DNA of 64,000 nt from the NCBI GenBank assembly GCA_030427125.1, contig JAUHXF010000001.1, positions 116,102 through 180,101 on the forward strand, written 5' to 3'. The notes beneath the pieces are model-generated. The model made no database searches. It saw only the letters and a list, made by a program, of their open reading frames with translations, and was not told where the DNA came from. This DNA comes from a bacterium. Lineage in GTDB: Bacteria > Patescibacteriota > Saccharimonadia > Saccharimonadales > SZUA-47. This document shows positions 11,328-53,696 of the stretch, piece after piece (position 1 is the stretch's first letter; each line of letters opens with the position of its first letter). The translations under genes and the position numbers were made by a program.

Positions 11328-11953
11328 AGATTACTGCGATTAAGGCCCAGGTAAAAAATGAGAACCGAGTATCTATATTTGTTGACGGGAAGTACTCGGT
11401 TAGTCTGACACTTGATCAGTTATTGGGACAGAAGCTGAAGAAAGATGATGAAATTGATGATGCACGCATAAAAGAGCTGAAAAAACTGTCTGATGAGGGC
11501 AAGCTGAAAGCTCGAGCAACCGAGTGGCTGATGAATCGACCACATTCGGTGCGGGAGTTTCGAGATTATATGTTTAAAAAGCGTGCTGAAAAAGAGCTAA
11601 CAGAAGCTTGGATCGAAGAGTTTACTGATAAAAAGCTTCTGAACGAAGAGCATTTTGCTCGCTGGTTTGCAGAAAACCGCGCACGAAAAAAGAAATCTAA
11701 CCGCGAAATCTCTGCAGAACTTGCAAGCAAGGGGATTTCACGAGAGGTGGCCTCGACTGTACTGACGGAATTACGTGAAGAGAAAACAGAAGAAGAATCA
11801 CTAGCCGAATTAGTGCAAAAACTCCGTAAGAGAACTCGCTACCAAGATGAGCAGAAATTGAAAACATACTTAGTCTCAAAAGGGTTTCGCTATGACGACA
11901 TCAAGCATGCACTTGAAGAAAGTGAAGCGAAATCCGATTTAAATCCGATTTAA
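11324..11953 (+). CDS. recX: regulatory protein RecX
   Basis: Position immediately downstream of recA and a three-repeat helical RecX-like sequence (…EWLMNRPHSVREFRDYMFKK…). The C-terminal KSDLNPI* is encoded by the 33-bp palindromic repeat. Confidence 0.7.
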   Translation: MKITAIKAQVKNENRVSIFVDGKYSVSLTLDQLLGQKLKKDDEIDDARIKELKKLSDEGKLKARATEWLMNRPHSVREFRDYMFKKRAEKELTEAWIEEFTDKKLLNEEHFARWFAENRARKKKSNREISAELASKGISREVASTVLTELREEKTEEESLAELVQKLRKRTRYQDEQKLKTYLVSKGFRYDDIKHALEESEAKSDLNPI

Positions 11954-11962
11954 ATCGGATTT
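11930..11962. repeat. 33-bp palindromic repeat (3 x 11-nt units AAATCCGATTT / AAATCGGATTT), copy 1
   Basis: AAATCCGATTT AAATCCGATTT AAATCGGATTT. Contains the recX stop codon and lies between convergent genes. Confidence 0.7.
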
Positions 11963-12984: not shown

Positions 12985-13361
12985 TGTTAGCGTTGCGCAC
13001 AGACAAACCGGAGGCCGAGCTGTATTTATACGAAAATGGAGTTGAATTGGGCAGCGTAGTCTGGCAAGCACACCGGCAACTTGCAGAAACGCTTCACAAG
13101 AAAATTGTAGAGCTATTGAACGAGAACAGTAAAGACCAACAATCTCTAGAGAAAATTGGGGCATATGAAGGTCCTGGTTCTTTTACGGGTTTGAGGATTG
13201 GATTAAGCGTCGCTAACACACTTTCATATGCACTACAAATACCTATTGTCGGTGCTAGTGGGGATGATTGGCTCAATCAATGCGTGCAATTTGACGGCTC
13301 GATGGAGCCTGTCATTCCGCAGTATGGTGCAGACCCTCACATCACCAAACAAAAGAAGTAA
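12978..13361 (+). CDS. tsaB: TsaB (YeaZ)-like protein, short form (N-terminal domain only)
   Basis: GPGSFTGLRIG motif of the YeaZ/Kae1 fold. Only 127 aa, so it lacks the C-terminal half of canonical TsaB. Confidence 0.6.
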   Translation: MLMLALRTDKPEAELYLYENGVELGSVVWQAHRQLAETLHKKIVELLNENSKDQQSLEKIGAYEGPGSFTGLRIGLSVANTLSYALQIPIVGASGDDWLNQCVQFDGSMEPVIPQYGADPHITKQKK

Positions 13362-13506
13362 AACCTGGAAGTACAGACATTAGATAGATTGTGAAGCACG
13401 TATAGTAGGTCGAACCAGAATAATCGCGCGCTATTGCAGAGGTCCGACCTCTGCATGGATGTAGATGTATAAGGTTCAGAAGCAATTTGAAGAAGTATAA
13501 AAATTG

Positions 13507-13529
13507 AAATTGCAAAAAATTTGCAATTT
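13507..13529. promoter_or_regulatory. perfect AT-rich palindrome AAATTGCAAAAAATTTGCAATTT upstream of surface-protein island
   Basis: Inverted repeat ATTGCAAA/TTTGCAAT, 210 bp upstream of the first island gene. Confidence 0.3.
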
Positions 13530-13740
13530 TAATCTGAGAGTAGATTGATGATGAGAAGTAAAAATAAAGCAGAGTTAATGGCTAGTTAGCACACGAGTGA
13601 TGTGCAATAGTCAACAATAAGCATAAACGACTTGACACACATAACAGATACACTTATAGTCGTCTTTGTAGTAATTAAAAACACATAACTTATAAGACAA
13701 AGAATCTCGCACAAAACTCTTTGTTGAAAGGGCGTAAAAC

Positions 13741-15564
13741 ATGAAATCAAATATTATAAAACTTGTTGGAGTGCAGGCTTTGCTAGTATTCGCGGCTTTG
13801 TTGTTCGGTGGAGCTAGCGCAAATGCTGCTGCCGACACATGTGTCTGGACCGGTGGTGGAACTGGAACAGTAGATTCCGGGGCAAATACAATCACATTTA
13901 ACGTTAACGACGCGTCTAACTGGAGCACTTGTGATAACGGTGCTATTCCAGAAGCAGGCGATACGCTCGAATTCCCAGCTAACCTTGCAGACGTAGATCC
14001 TGGAGACACAATTGATGATAATGACGAGTGGCAGTGGACGTATATAGTGAATAATGACTTGGCTGCTGATACAGCTTTTGCAGCGATAAACTTCACTGGA
14101 GACGCCGGGGACGACAATGTCAACAATGACGGTTATAAGCTTGCGGGTAATGCAATTCAGTTAAACGGAGACATTACTTTGGGGTATAACACTTATAACG
14201 AACGGCCGGAGATTCGACTAGATGTTGAAGCGCTAACCGATGTGGCGTTAGGGGTTGGTTTTGGTTCAAATTCAACACTTACTTATGGTGCGAATGAATT
14301 AACCTTAGGAAGTAATGGGTATCCTTCTTTTAGCGCAGAATTCAACGGTACTGGTGTCATAAATATTGGGCAAGCAAACTTTAACTTAGCAAGCACGAGC
14401 TCAATTGGCTCCTCTATAGTGGTTCAAGACGACAGGCGAATTTATGTGGATCTTAATTCACCTCTTAACGACTCAGGGCTCACAATCACGTTAGGTGATG
14501 GTGCCAGCATGGATATCAGCTCGTCACAGGCAGATTTTGATACCCTAAATACCAACATAGTATTTGTAGGAAGCGGCACCACAACATCTTATTCAACTAG
14601 TAATAATTATTCAGATCCTTCAAGTTCAGTCGAGGTTGAGAATTATAGAGGGTCAATTAGCGGGTCAGAATATAACCCTGAAACAGAAAAAACAACTCTA
14701 TTTGGTATAACACTAGCTGGCGATATGACATTGTCCAGCGATACAGTTTTACAATTACGCAGTGATGCTGAAATTACAGGTGATATTAGTGGTGAATATG
14801 AGATATCGTTAATGGCAGGTTCCGTTGGGCGTCTGGCTATTAGCAGCGAGAATAATGACAGTGAAACAAGTGGTACATTGTCTGCAGAAATGATCACTTT
14901 TAATCTGTTTGACGAAGCATTTGATATATGGCTTGCGGCAGGTAGAATCGGCATTTTGTCTCCAGATGAGGAGATTGATGACAAGCTAACTGTAATTCAG
15001 GGGGCTCGTTTACAGGGCGAAGGACAAGTAGCGGGACTAGAAGTACAGACTGGTGCGGTTGTAGCACCCGGAAATAGTCCAGGTTGTATTGTGTCTGACG
15101 GTGACCTAGAGCTGAACGGTACATACGAGTTTGAGATAGAAGAAGATACTGAATGTACCGGGTACGATCAGCTCGATGTGACAGGTGCAGTCGACATTAC
15201 TGGTGCGACTCTAGAGATATCACTTCTAGACGATTACAACTTCGATGTTGATACTGAGTTTATCTTGATAAATAATGATGGCTCAGATGATGTGACGGGT
15301 GAATTTGATGGGCTTGAGGAAGGTGACACAATCACCGTTGATGGCAATGATTTCGAAATTAGCTACGAAGGTGGTGATGGAAATGATGTATCAGTTCTCG
15401 CAATAAGCATATCTGATGAAAATGCTGCTTCTGAAGAGGCTCCTGGAGCTCCTGATACAGGTGTTGGTTCACTCATGCAGAATCCGATGGTAACACTATT
15501 AGCAGCAGTGCTCGCAGCTGGTGCGATAGTTGGATTGCGAAAAGTACAAAGCTCACGAAACTAA
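13741..15564 (+). CDS. secreted beta-helix/PATR-repeat surface protein with C-terminal APxTG-type sorting signal
   Basis: Signal peptide. An autotransporter-associated (PATR)-like motif (CVWTGGGTG…NWSTCDNG…P…D…F). C-terminus …EAPGAPDTGVGS + hydrophobic helix + LRKVQSSRN. Confidence 0.6.
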   Translation: MKSNIIKLVGVQALLVFAALLFGGASANAAADTCVWTGGGTGTVDSGANTITFNVNDASNWSTCDNGAIPEAGDTLEFPANLADVDPGDTIDDNDEWQWTYIVNNDLAADTAFAAINFTGDAGDDNVNNDGYKLAGNAIQLNGDITLGYNTYNERPEIRLDVEALTDVALGVGFGSNSTLTYGANELTLGSNGYPSFSAEFNGTGVINIGQANFNLASTSSIGSSIVVQDDRRIYVDLNSPLNDSGLTITLGDGASMDISSSQADFDTLNTNIVFVGSGTTTSYSTSNNYSDPSSSVEVENYRGSISGSEYNPETEKTTLFGITLAGDMTLSSDTVLQLRSDAEITGDISGEYEISLMAGSVGRLAISSENNDSETSGTLSAEMITFNLFDEAFDIWLAAGRIGILSPDEEIDDKLTVIQGARLQGEGQVAGLEVQTGAVVAPGNSPGCIVSDGDLELNGTYEFEIEEDTECTGYDQLDVTGAVDITGATLEISLLDDYNFDVDTEFILINNDGSDDVTGEFDGLEEGDTITVDGNDFEISYEGGDGNDVSVLAISISDENAASEEAPGAPDTGVGSLMQNPMVTLLAAVLAAGAIVGLRKVQSSRN

Positions 15565-15588
15565 AAAAAGAAAAAAGGAGAAAGAAAA

Positions 15589-16818
15589 ATGAGCAAAATG
15601 AAAAAAGTAAAAGCAGCCGTTCTCTCGACGGTAGTTGGTGCAATGTCGCCACTCGCAATGATTGCACCTGCGTCGGCAATTACAAATACTTGGACAGGCT
15701 TTGACGAGTCGAGCAATAATTGGAACAATTCAGACAACTGGTCATCTGGTTTCGGTCCAGGCAACGGTGACACATTAATTTTTCCTACATCAGCTCGATA
15801 TCAAGTTACGGAAAATGATATTGCGGGAACACTAGAGCTTGTAAGTATTATTTTCAACGGGGAATTTGACCCCGTTAACAACAGTTCAAAAGACTTCAGT
15901 ATTGAAGGCGGTTCAATAGAAATTTCAGACTCTATTCAAGCTAAAATGACTGGCAATGGCGGTAATCATACAATAGACTCTGATGTTGTGCTTGGTGATG
16001 ATGTTACTTTCAGTACCTCAGGAGTAGACACTTTAACAGTAGGTGGTGACGAAACGACACTTGATCTTGCGGGTAACGCACTTACATTGAGCGCTTCAGG
16101 TGGAACCATTACTATACAAGGTGTGATCGATGGTGAAGGAAGCGTAGAAGTCGCTAAAGGTAGAGTGAACATGCTTGCTGAGCCTGGCGATGACTATGAT
16201 GCGACAACAACAGTGTCTGGCGGTGAATATATCGTATCTGCAACAAGCCAGGGTAGTGTCACAATCGATGGTGGTGTACTTAAGGGAGAAAGTGGTGACA
16301 CAGGACTTCTAGGTACGGTAACACTCAATGACGGTTCAATTGAGCCGGGTATGAGCCCAGGCTGTCTCAATGTTTCAGAGTTAGTCCTCAATGGTGGTAC
16401 ATACGAAGTCGAACTTGAAGGCAATGCACAGTGTACAGAGTATGACTCTACAGCTGTAGCTGGCGATGTTGATCTCGGTGAAGGAGATGTGACGCTGGAT
16501 ATTCAAAGACTATCAAGCTTTGAGCCAGAAGTAGATGATGTGTTTGCAATCATTACTTACTCTGATGACTCCGATGTAAGTGGCTATTTTGAAGGTCTCG
16601 AAGATGGTGAATCTGTAACACTCGCTGAGTACACATATGAGATTAACTATGACGATGATGATGCTGTCACGTTAACGGTGCTTGGAACACCAGAAGCACC
16701 ATATACGGGTGTTGGGTCGCTGCTAAACAGTCCGTTGCTTACGCTAAGTGCAGCTGGAGCAGTGTTAGTTGTTCTTGGTGCAACACGGTACGCACAAGTG
16801 AAGAAGACGCAAAAGTAA
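15589..16818 (+). CDS. secreted PATR/beta-helix surface protein with C-terminal APxTG-type sorting signal (paralog)
   Basis: Signal peptide and NTWTGFDESSNNWNNSDNWSSG…P. C-terminus …EAPYTGVGS + TM + RYAQVKKTQK. The RBS-like AAAGGAG precedes it. Confidence 0.6.
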   Translation: MSKMKKVKAAVLSTVVGAMSPLAMIAPASAITNTWTGFDESSNNWNNSDNWSSGFGPGNGDTLIFPTSARYQVTENDIAGTLELVSIIFNGEFDPVNNSSKDFSIEGGSIEISDSIQAKMTGNGGNHTIDSDVVLGDDVTFSTSGVDTLTVGGDETTLDLAGNALTLSASGGTITIQGVIDGEGSVEVAKGRVNMLAEPGDDYDATTTVSGGEYIVSATSQGSVTIDGGVLKGESGDTGLLGTVTLNDGSIEPGMSPGCLNVSELVLNGGTYEVELEGNAQCTEYDSTAVAGDVDLGEGDVTLDIQRLSSFEPEVDDVFAIITYSDDSDVSGYFEGLEDGESVTLAEYTYEINYDDDDAVTLTVLGTPEAPYTGVGSLLNSPLLTLSAAGAVLVVLGATRYAQVKKTQK

Positions 16819-16890
16819 GTTAAAAAGTAAAACGGAATAACATCACACCCCGGGCGCAACTAAGGGGTGTGATGTTTCAAAAGAAAAAAC

Positions 16891-18006
16891 ATGGGTGCAC
16901 AATCACAATCAAACTCAAATCGACTTTCGCTGAATAGTTCAGTGTTTGCTGGTCGTGTAAAGAAGTTCGATACATATGAACCACGACCAGCTCAACAGCA
17001 GCGACCTATTCAGCGTACATCGATACAGCAGGTAGCTCAGAAAAAGATAGTTGCTCCACAGCCGCTCGCCATAGCTAAGCCAGTGGCTCAAATGAGGCCT
17101 GCTGTTTTGAAGAAGCCAGTGTTGAAGCAGCCCGCAGCAGTAGAAAAGCCTAGCCTATACAGAGCTATCCCTAAGCAGAATGTTGGTGATCAAGAACAGT
17201 CAATGCGTCCGACACATACACTTGCTATGCAGGCAGTTGGCCAATCTAACGCAAAGCAGAAATCAGTGCTTGCTGATCAGTTTGAAGAATCGCTTTATAT
17301 GAACGCTAATAAGCCAAAGCAGGAAAAATCTAAGTTGGTTACCGCGATGAACACGGTGGCAGTTATTGTGTTTATCTTTGCGAGTGCGGTTAGCGTGCAA
17401 ACTCTGTTGACTAATCGGCAGACCCAGGATGTACTCGCCGACAAAGCCGAGCAAGTTCAAACAGCAGATGCGCAGGGAGTTTCTGAAGGAACTGGTCGTG
17501 ATCCTGCTGAAGAGCCTGTGCCAGATAACGCTATTATTAACTACCAGGTAGCGCCAGAGTTGCCTAGATACCTAAGCATCCCAGACATCGGCGTATTTGC
17601 ACGTATTAAGCACACGGGTCGGGATGACAGCGGGGCAGTTGATGCGCCACGCAATATACATGACGTTAGTTGGTATACAGAAAGTGCTAAGCCAGGAAAT
17701 GCCATCGGTGCTTCGTTGCTTCTCGGGCATGTTCAAGGCTGGAGTGCGCCAGGAGTGTTTAAGGAAATTGACAAGCTGCAGCCCGGAGCTCGTTTCACCG
17801 TTGAAAAAGGTAGCGGAGAGACGATTACCTATGAAGTAACAAGGGGTCAAGAATACTCACTTGAAGAATTGAACATGGGCAAAATTCTAAGCGCTGAAGA
17901 GTCCGGAGAGCACGATATGAAGCTGATGACATGCGCTGGAGCGTTTGACGCATCGACAGAAAGCTATATGTCGCGCTATGTTGTCTATGCAAAAGTTGTT
18001 CGATAA
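16891..18006 (+). CDS. sortase (class E/F-like) with long Q/P/K-rich N-terminal cytoplasmic extension
   Basis: TM helix then a catalytic domain with LLLGHVQGW (His), KLMTCAG (the TLxTC Cys) and a downstream Arg. Located directly after two candidate substrates. Confidence 0.75.
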   Translation: MGAQSQSNSNRLSLNSSVFAGRVKKFDTYEPRPAQQQRPIQRTSIQQVAQKKIVAPQPLAIAKPVAQMRPAVLKKPVLKQPAAVEKPSLYRAIPKQNVGDQEQSMRPTHTLAMQAVGQSNAKQKSVLADQFEESLYMNANKPKQEKSKLVTAMNTVAVIVFIFASAVSVQTLLTNRQTQDVLADKAEQVQTADAQGVSEGTGRDPAEEPVPDNAIINYQVAPELPRYLSIPDIGVFARIKHTGRDDSGAVDAPRNIHDVSWYTESAKPGNAIGASLLLGHVQGWSAPGVFKEIDKLQPGARFTVEKGSGETITYEVTRGQEYSLEELNMGKILSAEESGEHDMKLMTCAGAFDASTESYMSRYVVYAKVVR

Positions 18007-18197
18007 ACCATTGCACTGAAGTGCCTTGACGTCGTATGATTATTGCAAGTTTACGTCCCAAAAGTGTGAGTGGATATAAGCTTTATTGAATTTTATTATA
18101 TTTCGATTTATTGTTGCAGTTCGATTGACTAATGAAGTGATAGTGACGTCACAGAAGGCTGTAACAGCTCGATACAAAAAGAAAGGAAGGTCCAATA

Positions 18198-19712
18198 ATG
18201 GATCCGATTACCATTGTTGCAGCTGTGGTGGCTGCTGGTGTTGGCTTTGGTGCTAGCAACTACACGACGAAACAAAAGATAGGTTCAGCTGAAGAGAAAG
18301 CTACTAAAGAGCTCGAAAAAGCCAAGCGTGAAGGTAAAAAAGCAGTAGAAGAGGCTAAAGAAGAAGCACATAAAATTGCCGAAGAAGCACGTAAAGATGA
18401 AAAAAAGCGTCGCGATGAAATCAAAGAGGTTGAAAAACGGCTGTTGGATCGTGAGACTAATTTAGACAAGAAGCTTGATGAACTTGATAAGCGCGCTGAA
18501 AAACTACGAAAAGGTGAAGATGAAGTCGAAGCACTCAAGAACGAGATTCGTGATATTCGGACCAGGCAGCAGGACAAGCTCGAGAAGATTGCTAAGCTAA
18601 AGAAGACCGAAGCAGCTGAAAAGCTTATGGCAATGACCGAACGTGATATTAAAGGTGATCTCGAAGGCCTTGTTGCGAAGTTGCAGAACGAAGCCAAAGA
18701 GAATGCAGAAGAACTTGCCGGGACCGCAATCGTTGAGGCAATGGAACGTATGGCTTCTGAAGTGACAGCAGAGCGCACAATCAGCGCGTTGAAACTAACC
18801 GACGACGAAATGAAAGGTCGAATTATCGGTAAAGAAGGCCGAAATATCCAGGCTATTCAGAAAGCCACTGGCGTAGATGTCATGGTTGATGACACGCCTG
18901 GTATGGTTGTGTTGAGCTCATTCGATCCTATTCGTCGTGCCGTGGCGGTTCGAGTGATGGAGATGCTCATGAAAGACGGCCGAATCCATCCTGGTCGGAT
19001 TGAAGAAGTTGTTGAAAAAGCGCAGAAAGAAATTCATAAAGACGTGATGCGCGCGGGTGAAGACGCTGCGCGTGAAGTTGGTATTGTCGGCATTCCGAAA
19101 GAAGTACTCGAGCTCATTGGGCAACTCAAGTATCGAACAAGCTATGGTCAGAATGTCTTGAAGCACTCAACCGAAATGGCGCATATGGCAGGGATCCTCG
19201 CTGAGCAAGTTGGCGCTGATGTGAAGACGGCAAAGTACGCAGCGCTTATTCACGATATGGGCAAGGCACTGACGCACAAGATGGAAGGAAAGCATCACCA
19301 TATCTCCGGTGAAATGGCTCGAAAGTATGGAGTGCCTGAAGCGGTAGCACAAGCTGCGGAACAACATCATGACGATGTTGAGGCGACAAGTACCGAGGCA
19401 ATCATTATTCGGGTAGTTGATGCAATATCCGCTGCTCGTCCAGGTGCACGAAACATTTCTGCAGAGAACTTCGCAGAACGAATGAAGGATCTTGAGAATA
19501 CTGCACTTTCATTTGAAGGTGTCGATAAAGCATACGCAATTAGTGCAGGTCGTGAAGTTCGTGTTTTCGTTAAGCCAACCAAGCTCGACGATCTCGGAGC
19601 GATTAAGCTTGCTCGTGATGTTGCAAATAAGATCGAATCGACGATGCAATACCCAGGTACGATTAAGGTGAATGTCATCCGCGAAACTCGTGCTATAGAA
19701 TTCGCTAAGTAG
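18198..19712 (+). CDS. rny: ribonuclease Y
   Basis: N-terminal TM, coiled-coil, KH domain (GRIIGKEGRNIQAIQKATG) and HD domain (H…HD motif). Confidence 0.9.
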   Translation: MDPITIVAAVVAAGVGFGASNYTTKQKIGSAEEKATKELEKAKREGKKAVEEAKEEAHKIAEEARKDEKKRRDEIKEVEKRLLDRETNLDKKLDELDKRAEKLRKGEDEVEALKNEIRDIRTRQQDKLEKIAKLKKTEAAEKLMAMTERDIKGDLEGLVAKLQNEAKENAEELAGTAIVEAMERMASEVTAERTISALKLTDDEMKGRIIGKEGRNIQAIQKATGVDVMVDDTPGMVVLSSFDPIRRAVAVRVMEMLMKDGRIHPGRIEEVVEKAQKEIHKDVMRAGEDAAREVGIVGIPKEVLELIGQLKYRTSYGQNVLKHSTEMAHMAGILAEQVGADVKTAKYAALIHDMGKALTHKMEGKHHHISGEMARKYGVPEAVAQAAEQHHDDVEATSTEAIIIRVVDAISAARPGARNISAENFAERMKDLENTALSFEGVDKAYAISAGREVRVFVKPTKLDDLGAIKLARDVANKIESTMQYPGTIKVNVIRETRAIEFAK

Positions 19713-19823: not shown

Positions 19824-22800
19824 GTGAGGTTTTTTCGGCGCAGCCACTATGTGGTTGTTGCTTTGTTTTTACTTGTGCAGTTTTTGCCAGCTGATCAATT
19901 ACGTACACTTCTGCCGAAAGCACATGCTGCACCTGGTGATGGTCATATGTTGTTGTTCTGGGATGGCGGAAGTGCGCCGAGTGGTTGGAGTTGCGTGTCT
20001 TGCAGCCCGGGTGATGATTTCTATCAAAGATTCATTCGAGGTAATGATGCCTATGGAGCTACTGGTGGTGCCGCAACGCATACACACACGGCTGATGGTT
20101 CGGTTGACGAGACAACCACGCCAATGCCGGCTCGATCGCGCAATACACCACCGAACGACATTCACGAAAATGATCATACACATACATTTAGTCCGACGAT
20201 TGGAACTGCTAGCAATCTCCCTGAATACAGACAGCTGCAAGTTATCAGACACGACACTGCAGGTGATCCTGCAACGCTACCGGCTGGTGCAATAGCAATA
20301 TTTGACGCCGCAGTGCCAACTGGCTGGACGAGGTATTCAGCGCAAGATGGTCGATATATACGTGGTGAAAACACTGTTGGCACAACGGGCGGTTCGAATA
20401 CGCATACCCATGCCATAACGGGCACAACCGGCACAGCTCAGGGTGCTGATCGTGAACGAAACATAAACGGTACACAAACAAATGTTGCTGATGGGGCACA
20501 TACGCATGATGCATCGGGGACTTCCGCGAGCACGAGCAACGAGCCACCGTATATTGAGGTCATTCTCGGCGAATTGGACGCTGGTGCTGCCCCGCCAAAT
20601 GACATGTATGCAATGTGGGATGATGACCCGACAACAGCGTGGTCTGTGAAGAGTGAGAGTGGTGGTGTCTTCCACCAGGCGTTCTTTAAAGGTGCGAGTT
20701 CATATGGTGCTACCGGCGGGAGTGAGTCGCACAGTCATGCAGATGTGAGTTATGAATCAGGTTTACCAAGTGCGACGACTACCTCACGAACAAACGGTAC
20801 GGTCCGCGCCGCAGACGATCAGCATACGCACACGATAAACGTCACGAATTTCTCCGACGTGAATCATCTGCCGCCGTATATCGACGTTATTATTGCCAAG
20901 AAACAAGCTCCAAGTACACTGGAGCAATCATCATACCGATGGTTTAGAAACCAAGATAGTACAGATGCTGGAACGTCGCTCGCTGCTGAGAACACCGCAG
21001 CAACTGCACCACCTCAGGGCAAAGAATTTCGTTTGCGCTTCACAATTGGTGTCAGCGATGTCGACATGGGGTTGAACGGAGAGACCATGAAGCTGCAGGT
21101 TGCGCAACGCGTAGGTGCGTGTGATACGAGTTTCATCGGCGAAACATACAGTGATGTATCAGATTCATCTGGTGTGATTCGTTTTGCTAATAATCCTACG
21201 CCAGATGACGGCGATTCGTTAACGACAATTGCTAATGATCCAACTGGCGGAGGCGGGACGGTTGTCGCGCAAAGCTATGAAGAGTCTGGCGGTTTTTCCA
21301 ATACAGAAGCAGCAATAGATATTGGTGAAGATGGATTGTGGGACGTGGCGTTGGTCGATGATTCAGCACCGGCTTCAACAGCGTATTGTTTCCGTGTGGT
21401 GCGTAGCTCTGGATCAAGCCTAGATTACTACAGCGAAATACCAGAAATCACCACTGATGACGGGCTTGGTCATATGCTGCTGTTTTGGGATGGAGTTAGT
21501 GTGCCGAGCGGCTGGAGCTGTGTGTCGTGCAACCCAGGTGATGATTTCTATCAACGCTTTCCACGCGGCGAGACTACCTACGGAGCAACTGGAGGTAGTG
21601 CTGCGCACTCGCACACCGCAGACGGAACAGTTGGGGCGCAATCAGCCTTATCAGGAAGAAGTAGTGCAGGCACTGGATTCATTCGGGCACACGATCACTC
21701 CATTACGCCGATCATTGGCAATGCTAGTAACTTGCCGGTGTATAGACAGCTGCAGGTAATTCGCTTTGACAGCAGTGGAACTCCGACGACAATTCCAGCT
21801 GGTGCAATAGCAATTTTTGACGCAGCTGTACCAACAGGCTGGACGAGGTATTCAGTGCAAGATGGTAATTACATTCGCGGTGAGAGCACTGTAGGATCAA
21901 CTGGTGGTAGCAACACTCATACCCATACGATTACTGGTACAACAAGCATAGGTACAGGGACTATTCGAGGTCAAAACACAAATAATACCCAAGGCCCCGC
22001 ACCAACTGATACACACACCCACACAATCTCTGATAATTCAGACTCTGTGAGTAACGAACCGCCGTACATCGAAACGATCTTGGGCTCAATAAACGCCAAT
22101 GGCTCTGCGCCATCAAACATGCTAGCTATGTGGGATGGAGTTATGCCTGGTACCTGGACATCGCAATCAGACGCCGTAGGCGCATTTAACCAGAACTTCA
22201 TGAAGCCTGCAGCAACCTATGGCGCGACTGGCGGAAGTGCGACGCACTCACATGGCACAACTATCACGACATCATCCGGACCAAGTGCAACGGCGACAAC
22301 TAGAACGGGTGGGACGAACCTAAGTTCAGCAACGCACACGCACCAAGTTACAATTGATAATTTCTCTGACGTGAATCACCTACCACCTTACATCGATGTC
22401 ATTATCGGAAAGCTAACAGGCACCAATACTGGGCCAAATATACCGACCGCTTTGGATCAAATTCGCGTAAGTGACAGTTCATCGGTGGCGGTTGGTGGGT
22501 TCACCAATAATGGACAAGTTGAATTCACGGCGCAAGCTACAGACACTGACAATCCAGACGATTTGCAATTGTGCGTCGAGGTGCTTCCTATCGGCAGTCC
22601 ATTCACGAATGTTGAGTTGCAATGCGGCACAGCGGCGACCTACAGTGGCTCAGCGGTTAGCGTGTCAGTTACTATTTCGGGACTCAGTGATGGTACAAGC
22701 TACCATTGGCAAGCGCGGATTAAGGACGGAGCGGGGGCGACATCTGGCTGGGTGAGTTTTGGTGCAAACCCAGAGGCAAATGCTGATTTCATTGATGACT

Positions 22801-23627
22801 CTACTGATCCGAGCGGAACGGTATTTGACGGCTCGACTACGGGATTTGATGCTGATTTCAACGATGGCTCACTTGATACTTTGGAGGCGAATTGGAACAT
22901 CACAGACGGCGGTTCAGGAATCTCTGAGTACGAATATGCTATCGGCACGAGCGCAGGCGGAACGGATATTGTTGCCTACACGAGCAACGGAACAACCGAT
23001 TCAGTAACCGCAGGGTCACTTACGCTAGAGACTTCACTGCCGTACTATTTCTCCATTCGTACAACTGACAATGCCGATAATCAGATTATAATAACTAGCG
23101 ATAGTCAGCTTGTCGCACCGACGCTTACATTTAGCACGAGCACATCAGGCGGTGTACAGTTTGATAATCTGAACGCAAATAATAACTACACAGACACGAA
23201 AACTACCGTGTTAACAACGTCAACAAATGCACGAAATGGCTACGCGGTGCGTGCCTATACAACTGGGCTCTTAGAGAATAGCTACTTCGATGTTATTAGC
23301 AACTTTACTGGCGGCACCTACGCGGCCCCAGATACATGGCAGAGTGGTGATGTTGGCTACGGCTATACGTCTAATGACACACAGGTGCAGGGATCTAATA
23401 TCTTCAATGCAGTAACGTGTCCAGGTGGTGGATCAGGAAGCTCATGTTACGCGCCGTTTAGTCAGACAGCTCCGGGCGACATAGTTGCGGACAACGAGTC
23501 AACGATTACCGGGACGCCTATTACGAGTGAGCAATTCATCATTACGCATCGCGTCACAACAGATGCAAATCAAGAAGCCGGGCAGTACCAGACAATAGTC
23601 ATATTCCAGGCCACAGCAAAGTATTAG
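19824..23627 (+). CDS. giant secreted surface protein: 8 phage tail-collar-like repeats (2 blocks of 4), beta-sandwich/FN3-like domains, shared C-terminal module
   Basis: Repeats fit the tail-collar pattern (GW.C…G..Y.R…G.TGG…H.H … NEPPYIEVILG). Blocks at nt 19941–20905 and 21468–22420 are ~80% identical in DNA. C-terminal module is …PTLTFSTSTSGG…GQYQTIVIFQATAKY. Confidence 0.7.
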   Translation: MRFFRRSHYVVVALFLLVQFLPADQLRTLLPKAHAAPGDGHMLLFWDGGSAPSGWSCVSCSPGDDFYQRFIRGNDAYGATGGAATHTHTADGSVDETTTPMPARSRNTPPNDIHENDHTHTFSPTIGTASNLPEYRQLQVIRHDTAGDPATLPAGAIAIFDAAVPTGWTRYSAQDGRYIRGENTVGTTGGSNTHTHAITGTTGTAQGADRERNINGTQTNVADGAHTHDASGTSASTSNEPPYIEVILGELDAGAAPPNDMYAMWDDDPTTAWSVKSESGGVFHQAFFKGASSYGATGGSESHSHADVSYESGLPSATTTSRTNGTVRAADDQHTHTINVTNFSDVNHLPPYIDVIIAKKQAPSTLEQSSYRWFRNQDSTDAGTSLAAENTAATAPPQGKEFRLRFTIGVSDVDMGLNGETMKLQVAQRVGACDTSFIGETYSDVSDSSGVIRFANNPTPDDGDSLTTIANDPTGGGGTVVAQSYEESGGFSNTEAAIDIGEDGLWDVALVDDSAPASTAYCFRVVRSSGSSLDYYSEIPEITTDDGLGHMLLFWDGVSVPSGWSCVSCNPGDDFYQRFPRGETTYGATGGSAAHSHTADGTVGAQSALSGRSSAGTGFIRAHDHSITPIIGNASNLPVYRQLQVIRFDSSGTPTTIPAGAIAIFDAAVPTGWTRYSVQDGNYIRGESTVGSTGGSNTHTHTITGTTSIGTGTIRGQNTNNTQGPAPTDTHTHTISDNSDSVSNEPPYIETILGSINANGSAPSNMLAMWDGVMPGTWTSQSDAVGAFNQNFMKPAATYGATGGSATHSHGTTITTSSGPSATATTRTGGTNLSSATHTHQVTIDNFSDVNHLPPYIDVIIGKLTGTNTGPNIPTALDQIRVSDSSSVAVGGFTNNGQVEFTAQATDTDNPDDLQLCVEVLPIGSPFTNVELQCGTAATYSGSAVSVSVTISGLSDGTSYHWQARIKDGAGATSGWVSFGANPEANADFIDDSTDPSGTVFDGSTTGFDADFNDGSLDTLEANWNITDGGSGISEYEYAIGTSAGGTDIVAYTSNGTTDSVTAGSLTLETSLPYYFSIRTTDNADNQIIITSDSQLVAPTLTFSTSTSGGVQFDNLNANNNYTDTKTTVLTTSTNARNGYAVRAYTTGLLENSYFDVISNFTGGTYAAPDTWQSGDVGYGYTSNDTQVQGSNIFNAVTCPGGGSGSSCYAPFSQTAPGDIVADNESTITGTPITSEQFIITHRVTTDANQEAGQYQTIVIFQATAKY

Positions 23628-23824: not shown

Positions 23825-26800
23825 TTGGTGACTGAGTTTACTTTTTTGCTTAGTTTTATCCAGCCGGCTGCAGCTGCCGGAGAAATATTCCGTACGACTA
23901 CCTATGAGATAGAGGCAGGAACTTTTACGAGTACAGTCTATTCACTGACACTCAATAACAACCTAGAGAACAACTACTTCACGATGATAAGCGGTCCATC
24001 GGAAGCTACCGGATCTCGAGCACCAAACGCTGATCGGGTACGGGTGACTGCAGATCCACATAGTAATTTTGCTAGCACTACAGCCTCAAACCAACTGGAG
24101 CTTACACGCAATAATGCGACCAATGACTGGATAGGAGCCCTTACAGTAGTTGAGTGTCTCAGTAACTGTGCAACAAAAGGGTTTGTTCTGTCAGAAATTC
24201 TTGAGACAGATTTAGCGGCAGGTACTGCCAATACACTACAAACAGTGAACGATACCTTAAGTGCAAGCCACACTGCTCAAACAGTACCGTTTGGCGGTAG
24301 GTTCGGTGGCGGCATGGAAAGTGCTGGTACGGATTCAAATGCATATGCGACAACTGTTGGTATTAAAATAACTAAAACTAGCACTAATCAAATTACGTAT
24401 GAACGTTATGGCGCTGAGAGCCGTGCTCCAGCCGCGGGGACTGTGACAACGTATATCACCGAATGGGGAAGTGAATGGACTGTGCAAGATGTGAGCGTGT
24501 CAGGCACGAATGCAGGTTCGGGTATTGATGCAACGAATGAATACGAGACAACAAGCATCACATCAGTGGTTCGCGATAATACGTTTGTCTGGGGTGGTGG
24601 CTACTCCTATGATGATGGGCTTGGTGATGGTGCACTTGGTCAAGTAATCACTCTTGGTGATGGTGTGTCTCAGAATGCAACTGAAACGCTGGTTGCAGTT
24701 GGTGCTGAAGGTGGGCAGGTATCACCAGGTAGAGATTTTCAAGTCTATGTTTTAGAGCATGAGGGTTTAGCAGTTGACTATCGTTTCCGAGCACGAGGTG
24801 ACCAAGGCAGTAGTACTGGCTATCAAGAGTTAACTCAAACAGTTGATGCACCAATTGGATTAGAAACAAGAGATAATACTGCCACTGATGTGAGGTATAC
24901 GGAAGGCTTTCGTGTGCCATTGTTCTACAACACCTCAGGAGGGACGGGTCAAGCATATTCACGAACCGGCGCCTGGGGCCTTAGGCACACTGATGTAACC
25001 GAGATCACTTATTGGCGTGCTTATGCGGGTCAGCCAATAACTGGGTGGTTTCAGTCAATTGATTTCGCAGACATAAAATTCACCAATGTGATTACTCGGC
25101 AAGAGGCTTTTCGCTGGCGAGACGACTCAACAGATCTCAATACCGACGGTGGCTGGTTGGCATCAGAAGATACCAATCTCGGTGATCAAGCAAAGAATAC
25201 TAATTTGCGCCTACGCATTAAGTCATCAAATTTTGGTACAACACCTGAAACAGCCGCTAAGACTTACGAATTGCAGTTTAGCGAGAAAACATCTGCGTCT
25301 TGCAATGCTCTTGGTTCTTGGGTTGGTATCTCTGATAGCACTACGGACGCCTTTGCCCTGTATGATTCACCAAACATCGATCCTGATGGAGAGGTCACGA
25401 CACTAGGTTTGCTGTCAAACGGAGATGGCTTCACGTATGTCAACGGAGAAGGTCGTGAACTTGCAGATACGACAAACTCTATTGGACCTATAGCAAATAG
25501 CGCCTACACAGAAATCGAGTATGCGTTACGTCCAACTGATGAAGCAATCACGGGCAAAACCTATTGTTTTAGACTGTTCGACACGACTGCTAGCATGCCA
25601 CTTGATGGATATACAGTATATCCAGAACTTACTATTGAATCTGTTGTTATCGATGCTGTTTCTGGTCTAGGCGAAGCTGGCACATTTAGCTCAGCCGTCG
25701 ATGGAGGCTGGACGACAATTAACTTCTTGGGCACATACATGAACCCTGTCGTTGTCGGGACAACAAATACGCAGAACGGAGAGGATGCGTTAGTGTTTGA
25801 AGCACGTAATGTAACCGGTACGAGTGCTGAAATGCGCGTCTGTGAGTCAGAAGGAGCTGCCGCAAACGGCTGTGATACACACGCATCAGAGACAGTTGGG
25901 TATATGGTGATTGATGCAGCCGTGGCCGCAACAACGGACGGTATTGAAGCTGGGACATTCTCTGCTGATGGCGATTTTGACACCGATGCAGTAACGACAT
26001 CTTATCCGACTGCTTTTTCTTCGGCGCCATACGTATTTGCCAATGTTAATACGGTGAATTCATCTGATGAGCCGGTCGAAGTGATGGTCAGAGGTGTTAC
26101 AGCATCAACTTTTACAGCGGGACTATGTCATCAGTTAGTTGGTCCAGATTTAAATAGCTGTGACACAACACATGGATCAGAGACAGTTGGATGGGTGGCA
26201 ATTGAACCAGGCAATGAACCTTTTTCGGAGCAGTTTGACACGGGTGATGTGTCAATTGGTAACAGCACTTGGACGCCTATTACATTCAGTCCTTCTTTTG
26301 CTGCGCCTCCAGTCGTGATCGTCGAGTCACAGACAGACAACGGAGGTGAGGACGCGGTGCTTGATGAAGCTCGATTGGTAACAACAACAGGTGCTGATAT
26401 CCGTTTCTGTGAAATGGAAAATTTTGATACTTGCGATAGCCATAATGCTGATGATATTGCGTGGTTTGCTATCGAGCCGGGTCAATTCTCAGAAGCACTC
26501 GCACTTGATCAGGACGGCTATCGGTTCTATGAAAATGCTGATGCACTGACTCCAGCCGTTTCGTTAGATGCAGAAAATACTGAGATAGCAAATGTTGATA
26601 GCGGCGATGTGCTACGGCTGCGCTTGGCAGTACAGTCGGGTTCGCAAGCTACCGTTGTCGATGCCTTTGAGCCTAAACTCCAGTATGGCGTCGGTACCAC
26701 GTGCTCTGCTGTAGGCACATGGAATGATGTTGGTGGAATTGGCTCAGGTACAATCTGGCGTGGATATAATAATGCAACACCGTCCGATGCAGCGACGCTT

Positions 26801-28885
26801 CCGAGCTCACTATTAGATGGAGGTGCTAACACGCTGCAAACTTATGAAGAGGCGAATGATGCCTTGTCAAATCCAAACCTCATCCCGGCTAATAGTCGTG
26901 GTGAATGGGATTGGGTTATACAAAATAATGGCGCTGCAAACTTTACCAGTTATTGTTTCCGTATGGTGACTGTTGCTGGCGATCCAATTAATTATGCACT
27001 ATACCCACGATTAACAACGTCAACTGGTGTGGTCAACTCGGCACCGAACGACCCTATGAATCTTACGCAAGAACGAACAACAGGTGTGAATATTGCAGTT
27101 GGTGAGCTGATCAATACCGGCTCAGTAGTATTCAAGGCAGACATAAGTGATCAGAATGCTAATGACATTATCGAGCTTTGTATAGAAGTCAAAGAAGTCG
27201 GCCAAGCTTTTACTGATACTGAAGACAGCTGCAGTTCAAGCTATGTATATAACGGCTCCATGGTCGCAGCGGAACACACTATATCGGGTTATGAACACAA
27301 TACAACATACCACTGGCAAGCTCGCGTTAAAGACGCTGCTGGTTTGTATTCTGCCTGGGCTAGTTTTGGGGGTAATAGCGAAAATGCGCCAGACTTCGAT
27401 GTTGATACGGTTGACCCGGAGGTAATCGTCTATGATGGTATGACTCTAGGAGCAGACATTGAATTTAACGACGGGTCACTTAATACGCTCAGTGCAGTAT
27501 GGGAACTGCAAGACGAAGACGTTCCGACTGATTTTAGCGGCTTGGCACTATGGCTCGATGGTGCAGATGTCAACGCAGATGGTTCAACAGTTTCAGATGG
27601 AGCTGCAGTAAGCACATGGTTTGATAAATCAGGTAACGGGAATGATATAGCCGGTACTGGCGCCTCGACTTATAGCTCAGCAAACCAGGCGCCCGGATAC
27701 AGTGGCACGGCACAGCCATTCGATGATACTTACGATCGATCTGGTGGAAACGTAAACTCACAAACGTCATTCAGCGTTGTGACTGGTGATAATACAGATA
27801 CAAATGCCGTATGGTATGAGACTACGACACCTCGTGTTGCGCCAGGAGAACAAGGGCTACTGGGTGGCGGCACAACTCTTACAAACAATAACTTGTATGG
27901 AAGCTTTATTAGCAGTCAGCAACTCGTAACTTTGGAATATCTATCGTCGGGTGCTTCAACAAGCTGGCTTGATCGTAGCCAAGAGTTCTCATTCTCCGAG
28001 ACGCAGATTTTCGCTGATTCACAACGGTTGGTTATTGGTGATGACACAACTGGTGGAAACCCGCTGCAGTCGAATGAATATGTTCATGAATTAATTGTCT
28101 ATAATCAAGATTTGACGGCTGCGGAACGAAAAGCTGTATGGAACTACCTCGAGTGTAAATGGGGTCTCAAAGATTGTACTGTTACATATGAATACTCAAT
28201 TGGTACCTCTCCAGACGGGACTGATCTTGTCGATTGGACTTCTACAGGGACAACAACAACATTTACCGCCAGCACTCTTAATCTAGAAACTTCAGATATA
28301 TATTACGTCAATATTAGAGCAACAGATCCTGCTGGTAATCAGAAAGTCTTTAACTCTGATGGTCAGCAGGTAGCACCATCGCTTACATTCTCCACGTCGA
28401 CATCCAGTGGTGTAGTTTTTGATAATCTCAATGCCGGTAATAGTTTTACCGACACAGAGTCGACCATACTCACAACGAGTACAAATGCTCGAAATGGCTA
28501 TGCAGTTCGCTCATATATAACCGGTTCATTAGAGAATGTACTTCTAGATACGATAGGCGAGTTTGACGGTGGTACTTATGCTGCTCCTGACACCTGGCAA
28601 GGTGGGGATGAAGGCTATGGTTATACGTCTAGCGATACACTAGTTGATGGTGTAAATCGATTTAATGCAGCAACATGTCCGGGTGGTGGTAGTGGTGGTC
28701 CGTGTTTCGCGCCATTTAGTTTATCTGCCCCTGGCGACATAGTGGCAGACAATCTTGGTCCAGTAGTCGGAACACCAATCTCCAATGAGCAATTTACTAT
28801 TACGCATCGAGTCACAACAAATGCCTCGCAGTCTTATGGCACGTATCAGACTTCAGTGATATTTCAAGCAACAGCTGTATACTAA
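23825..28885 (+). CDS. giant secreted lectin-domain protein (3 H-type-lectin-like domains, LamG-like domain, FN3-like domains, shared C-terminal module)
   Basis: The start is probably TTG or GTG. There are three ~100-aa repeats matching the H-type lectin pattern, around nt 25640–26480 (a representative one is ITFSPSFAAPPVVIV…TTTGADIRFC…IAWFAIEPG). A LamG_3-like segment (LALWLDGADVNADGS…DKSGNGND) lies around nt 27530–28180. The C-terminus …GTYQTSVIFQATAVY is homologous to that of 19824..23627. Confidence 0.7.
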   Translation: MVTEFTFLLSFIQPAAAAGEIFRTTTYEIEAGTFTSTVYSLTLNNNLENNYFTMISGPSEATGSRAPNADRVRVTADPHSNFASTTASNQLELTRNNATNDWIGALTVVECLSNCATKGFVLSEILETDLAAGTANTLQTVNDTLSASHTAQTVPFGGRFGGGMESAGTDSNAYATTVGIKITKTSTNQITYERYGAESRAPAAGTVTTYITEWGSEWTVQDVSVSGTNAGSGIDATNEYETTSITSVVRDNTFVWGGGYSYDDGLGDGALGQVITLGDGVSQNATETLVAVGAEGGQVSPGRDFQVYVLEHEGLAVDYRFRARGDQGSSTGYQELTQTVDAPIGLETRDNTATDVRYTEGFRVPLFYNTSGGTGQAYSRTGAWGLRHTDVTEITYWRAYAGQPITGWFQSIDFADIKFTNVITRQEAFRWRDDSTDLNTDGGWLASEDTNLGDQAKNTNLRLRIKSSNFGTTPETAAKTYELQFSEKTSASCNALGSWVGISDSTTDAFALYDSPNIDPDGEVTTLGLLSNGDGFTYVNGEGRELADTTNSIGPIANSAYTEIEYALRPTDEAITGKTYCFRLFDTTASMPLDGYTVYPELTIESVVIDAVSGLGEAGTFSSAVDGGWTTINFLGTYMNPVVVGTTNTQNGEDALVFEARNVTGTSAEMRVCESEGAAANGCDTHASETVGYMVIDAAVAATTDGIEAGTFSADGDFDTDAVTTSYPTAFSSAPYVFANVNTVNSSDEPVEVMVRGVTASTFTAGLCHQLVGPDLNSCDTTHGSETVGWVAIEPGNEPFSEQFDTGDVSIGNSTWTPITFSPSFAAPPVVIVESQTDNGGEDAVLDEARLVTTTGADIRFCEMENFDTCDSHNADDIAWFAIEPGQFSEALALDQDGYRFYENADALTPAVSLDAENTEIANVDSGDVLRLRLAVQSGSQATVVDAFEPKLQYGVGTTCSAVGTWNDVGGIGSGTIWRGYNNATPSDAATLPSSLLDGGANTLQTYEEANDALSNPNLIPANSRGEWDWVIQNNGAANFTSYCFRMVTVAGDPINYALYPRLTTSTGVVNSAPNDPMNLTQERTTGVNIAVGELINTGSVVFKADISDQNANDIIELCIEVKEVGQAFTDTEDSCSSSYVYNGSMVAAEHTISGYEHNTTYHWQARVKDAAGLYSAWASFGGNSENAPDFDVDTVDPEVIVYDGMTLGADIEFNDGSLNTLSAVWELQDEDVPTDFSGLALWLDGADVNADGSTVSDGAAVSTWFDKSGNGNDIAGTGASTYSSANQAPGYSGTAQPFDDTYDRSGGNVNSQTSFSVVTGDNTDTNAVWYETTTPRVAPGEQGLLGGGTTLTNNNLYGSFISSQQLVTLEYLSSGASTSWLDRSQEFSFSETQIFADSQRLVIGDDTTGGNPLQSNEYVHELIVYNQDLTAAERKAVWNYLECKWGLKDCTVTYEYSIGTSPDGTDLVDWTSTGTTTTFTASTLNLETSDIYYVNIRATDPAGNQKVFNSDGQQVAPSLTFSTSTSSGVVFDNLNAGNSFTDTESTILTTSTNARNGYAVRSYITGSLENVLLDTIGEFDGGTYAAPDTWQGGDEGYGYTSSDTLVDGVNRFNAATCPGGGSGGPCFAPFSLSAPGDIVADNLGPVVGTPISNEQFTITHRVTTNASQSYGTYQTSVIFQATAVY

Positions 28886-53677: not shown

Positions 53678-53686
53678 ATCCGATTT
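53654..53686. repeat. 33-bp palindromic repeat, copy 2
   Basis: AAATCGGATTT AAATCCGAGTT AAATCCGATTT followed by a T-run. Contains the folD stop codon and lies between convergent genes. Confidence 0.7.
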
Positions 53687-53696
53687 CTATTTTTTG

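Follow-up and report, generated by a model that had tools for sequence, protein, structure and literature searches.

The closest described counterparts of the locus treated here are the class F sortases, to which reviews assign no physiological role (PMC13251363, PMC6998099). A sorting signal without the customary first-position leucine is already known for this class, in that the curators of NCBIfam recognise its actinobacterial form as GVDTG_CTERM. Elsewhere among sortases, Streptomyces SrtE1 carries an N-terminal cytoplasmic extension of 100-200 amino acids (aa), a part required in vivo that almost no other sortases possess (PMC5148588). Here we analyse a 64,000-nucleotide stretch of a Saccharimonadales genome (lineage SZUA-47; assembly GCA_030427125.1, contig JAUHXF010000001.1, positions 116,102 to 180,101 of the forward strand), hereafter the window, in which the genes for two secreted proteins, substrates 1 and 2, are followed by a sortase gene (Table 1). 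We consider it probable that these genes form a chromosomal cassette of the Saccharibacteria (TM7, Patescibacteria) in which two paralogous, Sec-exported beta-helix surface proteins precede their own class-F-type sortase. The system belongs with class F and is not a new kind of sortase system; we found no description of it in the searchable literature, nor any of wall-anchored surface proteins in the phylum Saccharibacteria. Searches of that literature for APDTG, APXTG, PDTG, GVDTG, MPETG and similar strings as sorting motifs returned unrelated uses only, and the searchable papers that name Saccharibacteria or Patescibacteria together with a sortase discuss no sorting signal.

Table 1. Features of the cassette and its parts, in window coordinates (position 1 is the first nucleotide of the window)
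Feature	Position	Strand	Remarks
Promoter-like site TTGACA-17-TATAGT	13632..13660	+	11/12 consensus matches; best site within 13200-18300
Substrate 1, 607-aa secreted protein	13741..15564	+	signal peptide, C-terminal module paralogous to substrate 2, sorting signal
Sorting motif A-P-D-T-G, substrate 1, residues 570-574	15448..15462	+	followed by VGSLMQNP, hydrophobic helix, LRKVQSSRN to 15561
Substrate 2, 409-aa secreted protein, predicted beta-helix	15589..16818	+	signal peptide, C-terminal sorting signal
Sorting motif A-P-Y-T-G, substrate 2, residues 370-374	16696..16710	+	followed by VGSLLNSP, hydrophobic helix, RYAQVKKTQK
Predicted RNA hairpin between substrate 2 and sortase genes	16839..16876	+	13-bp perfect stem, 12-nt loop containing GGGCGCAA, inverted repeat
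Class-F-like sortase, 371 aa	16891..18006	+	PF04203, NF033748
Predicted cytoplasmic N-terminal tail, residues 1-148	16891..17334	+	basic, Q/A/K/S/P-rich, mostly disordered
Conserved tail motif, residues ~11-29	16921-16977		RLSLNSSVFAGRVKKFDTY
Membrane helix, residues ~150-174	17338..17412	+	AlphaFold helix 148-187; best hydropathy window from residue 149
Extracellular linker, residues ~191-207	17461-17511		nearly invariant D-x-Q-G-V-x-[E/Q]-G-T-G-x-[D/E]-P-x-E; AlphaFold confidence (pLDDT) ~87
Sortase catalytic domain, residues 215-371	17533..18003	+	His280 17728-17730, Cys348 17932-17934, Arg362 17974-17976

The three open reading frames (ORFs) lie on the same strand, separated by intergenic gaps of 24 bp and 72 bp. 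Read directly from the ORFs, both upstream proteins end in APxTG followed by VGS, a hydrophobic helix and a basic tail, just as a preliminary description of this DNA had stated: substrate 1 terminates in ...EEAPGAPDTGVGSLMQNPMVTLLAAVLAAGAIVGLRKVQSSRN (longer stretch ...APGAPDTGVGSLMQNPMVTLLAAVLAAGAIVGLRKVQSSRN) and substrate 2 in ...GTPEAPYTGVGSLLNSPLLTLSAAGAVLVVLGATRYAQVKKTQK (longer stretch ...TPEAPYTGVGSLLNSPLLTLSAAGAVLVVLGATRYAQVKKTQK). A six-frame screen of the window for the pattern x-[PA]-x-T-[GANS], with a hydrophobic stretch and then a basic tail behind it, matched substrates 1 and 2 and nothing else. Their ends share the GVDTG-like architecture, that is, x-x-[D/E]-T-G with a hydrophobic helix and a basic tail beside a class-F-type sortase. 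Within the alignment of the substrate 2 family, P371, T373, G374 and P382 are invariant.

The signal is sharply conserved beyond the window. Among 60 non-redundant Saccharibacteria signals, 40 of which were aligned, proline at position 2, threonine at position 4 and glycine at position 5 are each invariant, and position 3 is mostly D (42) or N (10), with Y in three signals and rare others. The residue after the motif glycine is hydrophobic (V, F or I) and the next is usually glycine; a proline, preceded by N, S or H, stands eight residues past the motif glycine in ~90% of the signals. Because the invariance of P, T and G and the ~90% occurrence of this proline persist although the flanks are only ~34% identical, the motif appears to be under selection, the selected features seemingly being P, T, G, D or N at position 3, the hydrophobic-Gly pair and the [N/S]-P with which the helix begins. 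The preliminary description had also proposed that alanine replaces the first-position leucine. Leucine is indeed absent from 60/60 signals, but alanine is not obligatory (A 40, T 11, V 4, K 2, S 2, P 1), and the signal is best rendered as x-P-[D/N]-T-G-hydrophobic-G...[N/S]-P, a small residue being favored at position 1. The APDTG of substrate 1 is the consensus form, and the rarer APYTG of substrate 2 is found also in orthologues of the 409-aa protein (P0063, L003). In NCBIfam scans of the 40 aligned signals, the LPXTG anchor model (TIGR01167) matches five, none significantly (best E=0.034), and the GVDTG sorting domain (NF058571) matches two (best E=0.0065), the window signal scoring 9.1 bits against a cut-off of 29. 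The weak sub-threshold matches are mostly to models of sortase signals, namely NPXTG, LPXTG, GVDTG, srtB and LAVTG.

Several lines of evidence indicate that signal and enzyme are inherited together. We fetched 80 loci by sortase homology and screened all ORFs of these and of the window, blind to motif, for proteins ending in a hydrophobic helix and a basic tail. A subsequent screen picked out 33 ORFs with x-P-x-T-G at the right distance from the helix, and 30 of these directly adjoin a sortase gene, mostly upstream on the same strand with gaps of less than ~120 bp, or as a tandem pair like that in the window; most related loci have a single substrate. A rough estimate of the chance expectation is well under one xPxTG among the 98 anchor-bearing ORFs of the motif-blind screen, and chance resemblance was rejected. 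No signal-bearing ORF was found in the 400 kb of fetched sequence that lies more than 6 kb from a sortase. Approached from the signal side, a metagenome scan yielded four contigs, three of which show the order substrate-substrate-sortase. The cassette is thus a real lineage variant that recurs in dozens of related genomes, and the earlier proposal of a dedicated sortase-substrate trio whose signal lacks the first-position leucine draws support from this recurrent gene order, from the intact catalytic triad and from the complete absence of leucine. Co-inheritance of this kind suggests that the specificity of the sortase is altered.

The window enzyme matches Pfam PF04203 over residues 228-369 (60.4 bits, cut-off 26.6, E=1.9e-16), and a family profile search of the window recovers this one sortase ORF only. 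Across an alignment of 24 sequences, His280, Cys348 and Arg362 show no variation, nor do these columns vary among 21 diverse catalytic domains. The triad named in the preliminary description is therefore intact, except that the cysteine motif, given there as TLxTC, reads K-L-M-T-C. AlphaFold models the catalytic domain with pLDDT mostly >90, and Foldseek places it against 88 Protein Data Bank (PDB) structures at E<=0.001, the 50 listed all being sortases. The top matches are class C enzymes, with classes C, E and A about equal (E~1e-9 to 1e-8), and the fold therefore does not assign the class; a PDB sequence search with the sortase gave matches only at E~0.01, again to class C enzymes.

The NCBIfam class F model (NF033748) is the best class by ~70 bits (105.6 bits, E=1.8e-30, below its curated cut-off of 166 bits), and the only other sortase-class model at E<=0.01 is class GN 'marine' (E=0.0018). 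Proteins that NCBI itself names class F sortases (P0010, P0053, P0096, P0134 and the Planococcus and Thermomicrobium enzymes) score 99-130 bits on NF033748, which means that the cut-off is stricter than the naming in use. The close homologues are all from Candidatus Saccharibacteria and, where NCBI gives a name, it is class F sortase. A tblastn search against annotated plasmids gave 34 hits at 26-35% identity, all located in genes for class F or unspecified sortases or in unannotated stretches; the annotated features beneath them are nearly all 'class F sortase'. Since class F is both the best NCBIfam class and that of the nearest annotated relatives, yet the score falls under the cut-off, the enzyme is, judged from its sequence, class-F-like and divergent, and not a member by the curated threshold. 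Membership in class E was rejected, as there is no class E match at E<=0.01, relatives reach 27-36 bits against a cut-off of 160, and Pro rather than Ala is invariant at position 2 of the signal. The class C model likewise gives no match at E<=0.01 for the window protein, its relatives scoring 20-30 bits against a cut-off of 160.

A search of 1.84 billion representative proteins returned 297 clusters at E<=1e-30 and 3961 at E<=1e-10, and the best 150 of those clusters are nearly all 280-460 aa long, hence they too have a long N-terminal extension. A profile search with the diverse catalytic domains gave 1886 matches, of which the 120 listed are essentially all from Saccharibacteria; one 'Dormibacteraeota' match (P0096), which also has an APNTG neighbour, may be mis-binned. 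Sortase-like paralogues that lack the catalytic cysteine were also observed (L012:1715-2899, L024:9419-10546, L050:9713-10675, L061:9524-10495, L013:10982-11998, L035:3361-4374, L042:11708-12412 and others). At the L-x-T-C site they read ...MTIAG, ...MTASG, ...VTASV, ...MTTPN, ...ITEIG and the like, while His and Arg are apparently kept, and these Saccharibacteria proteins may be pseudo-sortases.

The arrangement extends to class F sortases of other phyla. Plasmids of Actinomycetota, Bacillota and Thermomicrobia supplied 12 loci with an annotated class F sortase for inspection (L086-L097). In nine of them a secreted protein encoded directly upstream on the same strand ends in a leucine-less signal, a helix and a basic tail: a copper amine oxidase (MPETG) and a hypothetical protein (MPDTG) on two Planococcus plasmids, a CHRD domain protein in Arthrobacter (GADTG), hypothetical proteins in Streptomyces sp. 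Q6 (GVETG), Cryobacterium (GVETG) and Virgibacillus (VPRTG), an ice-binding family protein in Rhodococcus (HPETG), a DUF4397 protein in Thermomicrobium (HVGTG) and a DUF4331 protein in Streptomyces sp. CA-256286 (GVGAG-like). The signals of Streptomyces sp. Q6 (32.4 bits) and Cryobacterium (34.4 bits) pass the GVDTG_CTERM cut-off of 29, and those of Arthrobacter and both Planococcus plasmids fall just below it. Given these nine loci in other phyla, a leucine-less signal on a dedicated upstream neighbour may be a general trait of class F and not specific to Saccharibacteria. This pairing is an observation of the present analysis and not an established criterion for the class.

Judged by eye, substrate 1 has a Sec-type signal peptide at residues 1-29 with an A-N-A cleavage site, and substrate 2 one at residues 1-30 with an A-S-A site; the two proteins are paralogous (BLASTP E=1e-25, 34% identity over ~240 aa). 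A Pfam scan gave nothing significant for either. Substrate 2 has 26 full-length homologues, each annotated 'hypothetical' and none with a Pfam domain, and substrate 1 has a partial NCBIfam match of 38 bits to the passenger region of an autotransporter peptidase (NF051851, EprS). The AlphaFold model of substrate 2 is all-beta (mean pLDDT 85.3), and its best Foldseek matches in the PDB are right-handed beta-helices, namely a metagenomic beta-helix, pertactin, Hap, Ag43 and other autotransporter passengers, albeit weak ones (E>=1.8e-3, TM 0.3-0.4). The autotransporter-associated repeat PATR (PF12951) matches no window protein; it is carried by a distant substrate homologue (P0089). The last beta-strand (...GDGNDVxL...) ends ~8-12 residues before the motif. 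With the signal removed, 29 of the 33 sortase-locus proteins form one homologous superfamily, in which substrate 1 groups with 28 other sortase-adjacent proteins, which suggests that the cargo co-evolves with the enzyme. An adhesin-like surface role of the substrates would be a reasonable reading of these data, and we go no further than that.

Considering the gene anatomy, the conservation of cassette and motif, the intact triad, the predicted folds and the affinity to class F together, we favor, and think quite likely, the account that a dedicated class-F-type sortase cleaves x-P-[D/N/Y]-T-G between T and G and anchors one or two beta-helix neighbours to the wall. Once exported, both substrates would stay in the membrane through their C-terminal helix and basic tail. 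The sortase, with type II topology and its catalytic domain outside the cell, would recognise x-P-[D/N/Y]-T-G and probably reads the hydrophobic-Gly pair and the helix-opening [N/S]-P as well. Cleavage between Thr and Gly would proceed via Cys348, the substrate would be transferred to an amino group of a cell-wall precursor, and the beta-helix would be left covalently displayed on the wall. In addition, the intercistronic hairpin probably holds substrate mRNA in excess of sortase mRNA, and a conserved cytoplasmic N-terminal motif probably docks the sortase to an intracellular partner.

The tail in which this motif lies is composed of Q, A, K, S and P to 53%, has a net charge of +15 and is modelled by AlphaFold with pLDDT <50 across most of residues 1-105. 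The long low-complexity N-terminus announced in the preliminary description is present, although it measures ~148 aa before the membrane helix and not ~170. Because the N-terminal side of the membrane helix is rich in lysine, the positive-inside rule predicts that the tail is cytoplasmic and the topology N-in/C-out. The tail motif (Table 1) takes the form RLSLxSxxFxGR[VI]KK[FY]DxY in the close clade, and distant Saccharibacteria sortases have a related pattern at the N-terminus, such as RMGLDNPQFHGRLR and IRLKLDNPIFEGKVR. Among 3568 ORFs, the patterns R[VILM][KR]K[FY]DxY and [RK]xxL[SDN]x[SP]x[FLV]xx[RK]x[KR] are exclusive to sortase ORFs. Host-associated (gut or oral) Saccharibacteria encode sortases of ~235 aa with the helix near the N-terminus, directly after secY and with no adjacent substrate gene (L038, L042, L054-L059, L062-L065, L070-L079); these loci differ from the environmental long-tail clade. 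Past the membrane helix, the conserved linker of the window enzyme has E-G-T-G-x-D-P at residues ~199-205; its G-T-G core resembles a class F signal, such as the HVGTG of Thermomicrobium, and the linker could be a lid or a pseudo-substrate.

The hairpin in the 72-bp gap between the substrate 2 and sortase genes has a folding energy of -23.1 kcal/mol (z = -5.3), and no U-tract follows it on the + strand. A comparable hairpin is present in seven of eight related loci (L001-L004, L006-L008); the stem sequences differ, with compensatory changes in 9/10 consensus pairs, and five hairpins, that of the window and those of four loci, have the loop word GGGCGCA in common. No Rfam family matches the hairpin. 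We rejected the idea that it is a dispersed repeat, as GGGCGCAA occurs at two other window sites, which is no more than chance, and the one of these that was folded (23763) has no comparable hairpin. The element may dampen expression of the sortase or give the substrate mRNA greater stability.

Certain observations weigh against a dedicated, wall-anchoring sortase as described above. The linkage counts come mostly from sortase-centred loci and are hence biased, and the source genome was read over the 64-kb window, leaving room for unlinked substrates or a second sortase elsewhere. On one metagenome contig (L101), the 1.8 kb available downstream of a signal-bearing gene include no sortase. The sortase falls short of the curated class F cut-off, and none of the 40 signals scanned reaches the cut-off of any curated sorting-domain model. 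Finally, the only biochemically characterised class F sortase, SrtF of Cutibacterium (Propionibacterium) acnes, is reported to use LPXTG (PMC8225981, PMC13257024). The first of these concerns bear on the alternative that the sortase is a general housekeeping enzyme and its neighbours are the most conserved members of a larger xPxTG set scattered over a genome of ~1 Mb. The limited reading of the source genome and contig L101 are compatible with it, as are a locus (L036) whose two substrates lie 3.6 kb and 5.2 kb away from the sortase and a metagenome-assembled genome (L019 and L029) with two sortases, each having its own substrates, so that a larger repertoire is possible. Nevertheless, we regard a housekeeping role as unlikely, given that 30 of 33 signal-bearing ORFs are directly beside a sortase, that none turned up in the 400 kb beyond 6 kb from one, that the 64-kb window contains no further signal, that 29 of 33 cargos belong to one superfamily and that the one-neighbour pattern is seen also in class F of other phyla. 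In a genome of ~1 Mb, the dedicated and housekeeping readings largely converge.

Two further explanations concern what the enzyme does with its neighbours, and we hold each to be very improbable. The presence of two paralogous substrates before one sortase recalls pilus operons, and Foldseek ranks class C sortases highest for the catalytic domain; both would fit a sortase that links the two proteins covalently into a polymeric fibre, either in place of wall anchoring or ahead of it. However, classes E and A match almost equally well (E~1e-8), the relatives score 20-30 bits on the class C model versus 99-130 on that of class F, the cargo is predicted to be a beta-helix and not an Ig-like pilin fold, and a single substrate is the rule in most related loci. 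The C-terminal segments might instead be plain, uncleaved anchors or be handled by another enzyme, with the sortase acting elsewhere or only releasing proteins by hydrolysis; that no curated sorting-domain model was passed and that cleavage itself is deduced would fit this notion. A plain anchor, though, leaves unexplained why P, T and G never vary and keep a constant spacing to the helix when the linker is variable, and there is strict synteny with a sortase whose triad is intact. Moreover, the NCBIfam scan of the 40 signals gave no significant match to signal models of exosortase, archaeosortase or rhombosortase type.

The cassette is set among housekeeping genes, with recX, tsaE and a tsaB-like gene upstream and the gene for RNase Y downstream, and it is therefore part of the core chromosome and no obvious mobile element. 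The TTGACA-17-TATAGT site ~80 bp before the substrate 1 gene, identified by its match to the consensus only, is a candidate operon promoter. Beyond RNase Y lie two very large proteins without Pfam assignment, at 19824-23627 (+, 1267 aa) and 23825-28885 (+, 1686 aa). The former has an N-terminal hydrophobic segment and internally duplicated modules rich in H-T-H-T and GATGGS motifs; the latter has only a sub-threshold match to an H-type lectin. Neither protein carries a sortase signal. Near-identical 33-bp palindromes, AAATCCGATTTAAATC and GATTTAAATCGGATTT, are found at 11930-11962 and 53653-53687, at gene 3' ends on opposite sides of the window, and may represent a shared terminator or binding site. 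In related loci, a recurring protein, ~470-520 aa where complete, is encoded 1-3 kb upstream of many distant sortase homologues (L012:1-714, L017:6784-8241, L024:7041-8441, L045:5583-7079, L046:6930-8453, L048:6059-6874, L050:7318-8880, L040:5184-6767). It ends in ...HPxxLAxVGxLAxGYxxYEYRxDxxxRxxQFRxxR..., a helix with a long basic tail and without xPxTG, and no copy was seen in the window.

These findings yield a testable rule, in which a class F enzyme is paired with one dedicated upstream substrate that bears a leucine-less x-x-[D/E/N]-T-G signal, and the sharply conserved motif, single cargo family and tiny genomes of Saccharibacteria make them suited to testing it. The system also names candidate wall-anchored surface proteins in a phylum that lives attached to other bacteria and whose attachment factors beyond type IV pili are little known. 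In addition, an xPDTG-specific enzyme could be orthogonal to the LPXTG sortases of protein ligation. A bolder proposal, which we advance as speculation that we consider doubtful, is that the environmental Saccharibacteria possess a distinct sortase subclass, in which a specificity for x-P-[D/N]-T-G, hydrophobic-Gly and [N/S]-P is orthogonal to LPXTG, the tail peptide RLSLxSxxFxGRxKKFDxY couples anchoring to an intracellular partner, and beta-helix adhesins are displayed for the host attachment of these ultra-small epibionts. If this were true, protein ligation would gain a new orthogonal enzyme, and the attachment of candidate phyla radiation (CPR) bacteria to their hosts would become concretely accessible.

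The cassette can be set against four kinds of known system. As to the cargo, autotransporter passenger adhesins (pertactin, Hap, Ag43) are similar in that the substrates are predicted to be all-beta helices whose best structural matches are passenger domains, with weak scores; unlike these adhesins, the substrates have no beta-barrel translocator and would be attached by way of a sortase signal. Class E enzymes (Streptomyces coelicolor SrtE1/SrtE2, LAXTG) also combine an alanine-containing non-canonical motif with, in SrtE1, a long cytoplasmic extension. In the class E signal, however, alanine occupies position 2 (L-A-x-T-G), where proline is invariant in Saccharibacteria, and it is position 1 that is altered in the latter. 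The SrtE1 tail has acidic and basic patches, whereas that of Saccharibacteria has RLSLxSxxFxGRxKKFDxY, with no motif in common. The class-E-like tail of the preliminary description is thus analogous to the SrtE1 extension but not homologous, the enzyme being class-F-like rather than class E, and the likeness would be one of function and not of sequence. The SrtF enzyme of C. acnes is placed in the same class in reviews (PMC8225981, PMC13251363) and is set beside the window enzyme here by description only; it is reported to be a housekeeping enzyme that uses canonical LPXTG, whereas the Saccharibacteria signals never have leucine at position 1.

The closest resemblance is to class F as modelled in NF033748 / IPR042001 and to its GVDTG signal (NF058571), given the lead of this class by ~70 bits and the secreted upstream protein with a leucine-less signal. 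Within this resemblance, the Saccharibacteria differ in several respects. Actinobacterial class F signals have V or A at position 2 and D or E at position 3, whereas those of Saccharibacteria have an invariant proline and D or N, as well as a conserved [N/S]-P opening the helix, which sets them apart from the GVDTG type, whose model they match only at E>=0.0065. The window sortase keeps the catalytic Arg, whereas actinobacterial class F enzymes are reported to have Asn (PMC6998099, PMC8703055). The plasmid-encoded class F enzymes are 209-256 aa long with the helix near the N-terminus, whereas a cytoplasmic tail of ~100-230 aa with a conserved motif is predicted for those of Saccharibacteria. 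Class F cargo elsewhere includes CHRD, DUF4397, ice-binding and amine oxidase proteins, in contrast to the one beta-helix superfamily found here. The Saccharibacteria variant, which lies outside every curated model, is accordingly characterised by its xP[D/N]TG signal, a single cargo family predicted to form beta-helices and a predicted cytoplasmic tail with a conserved motif.

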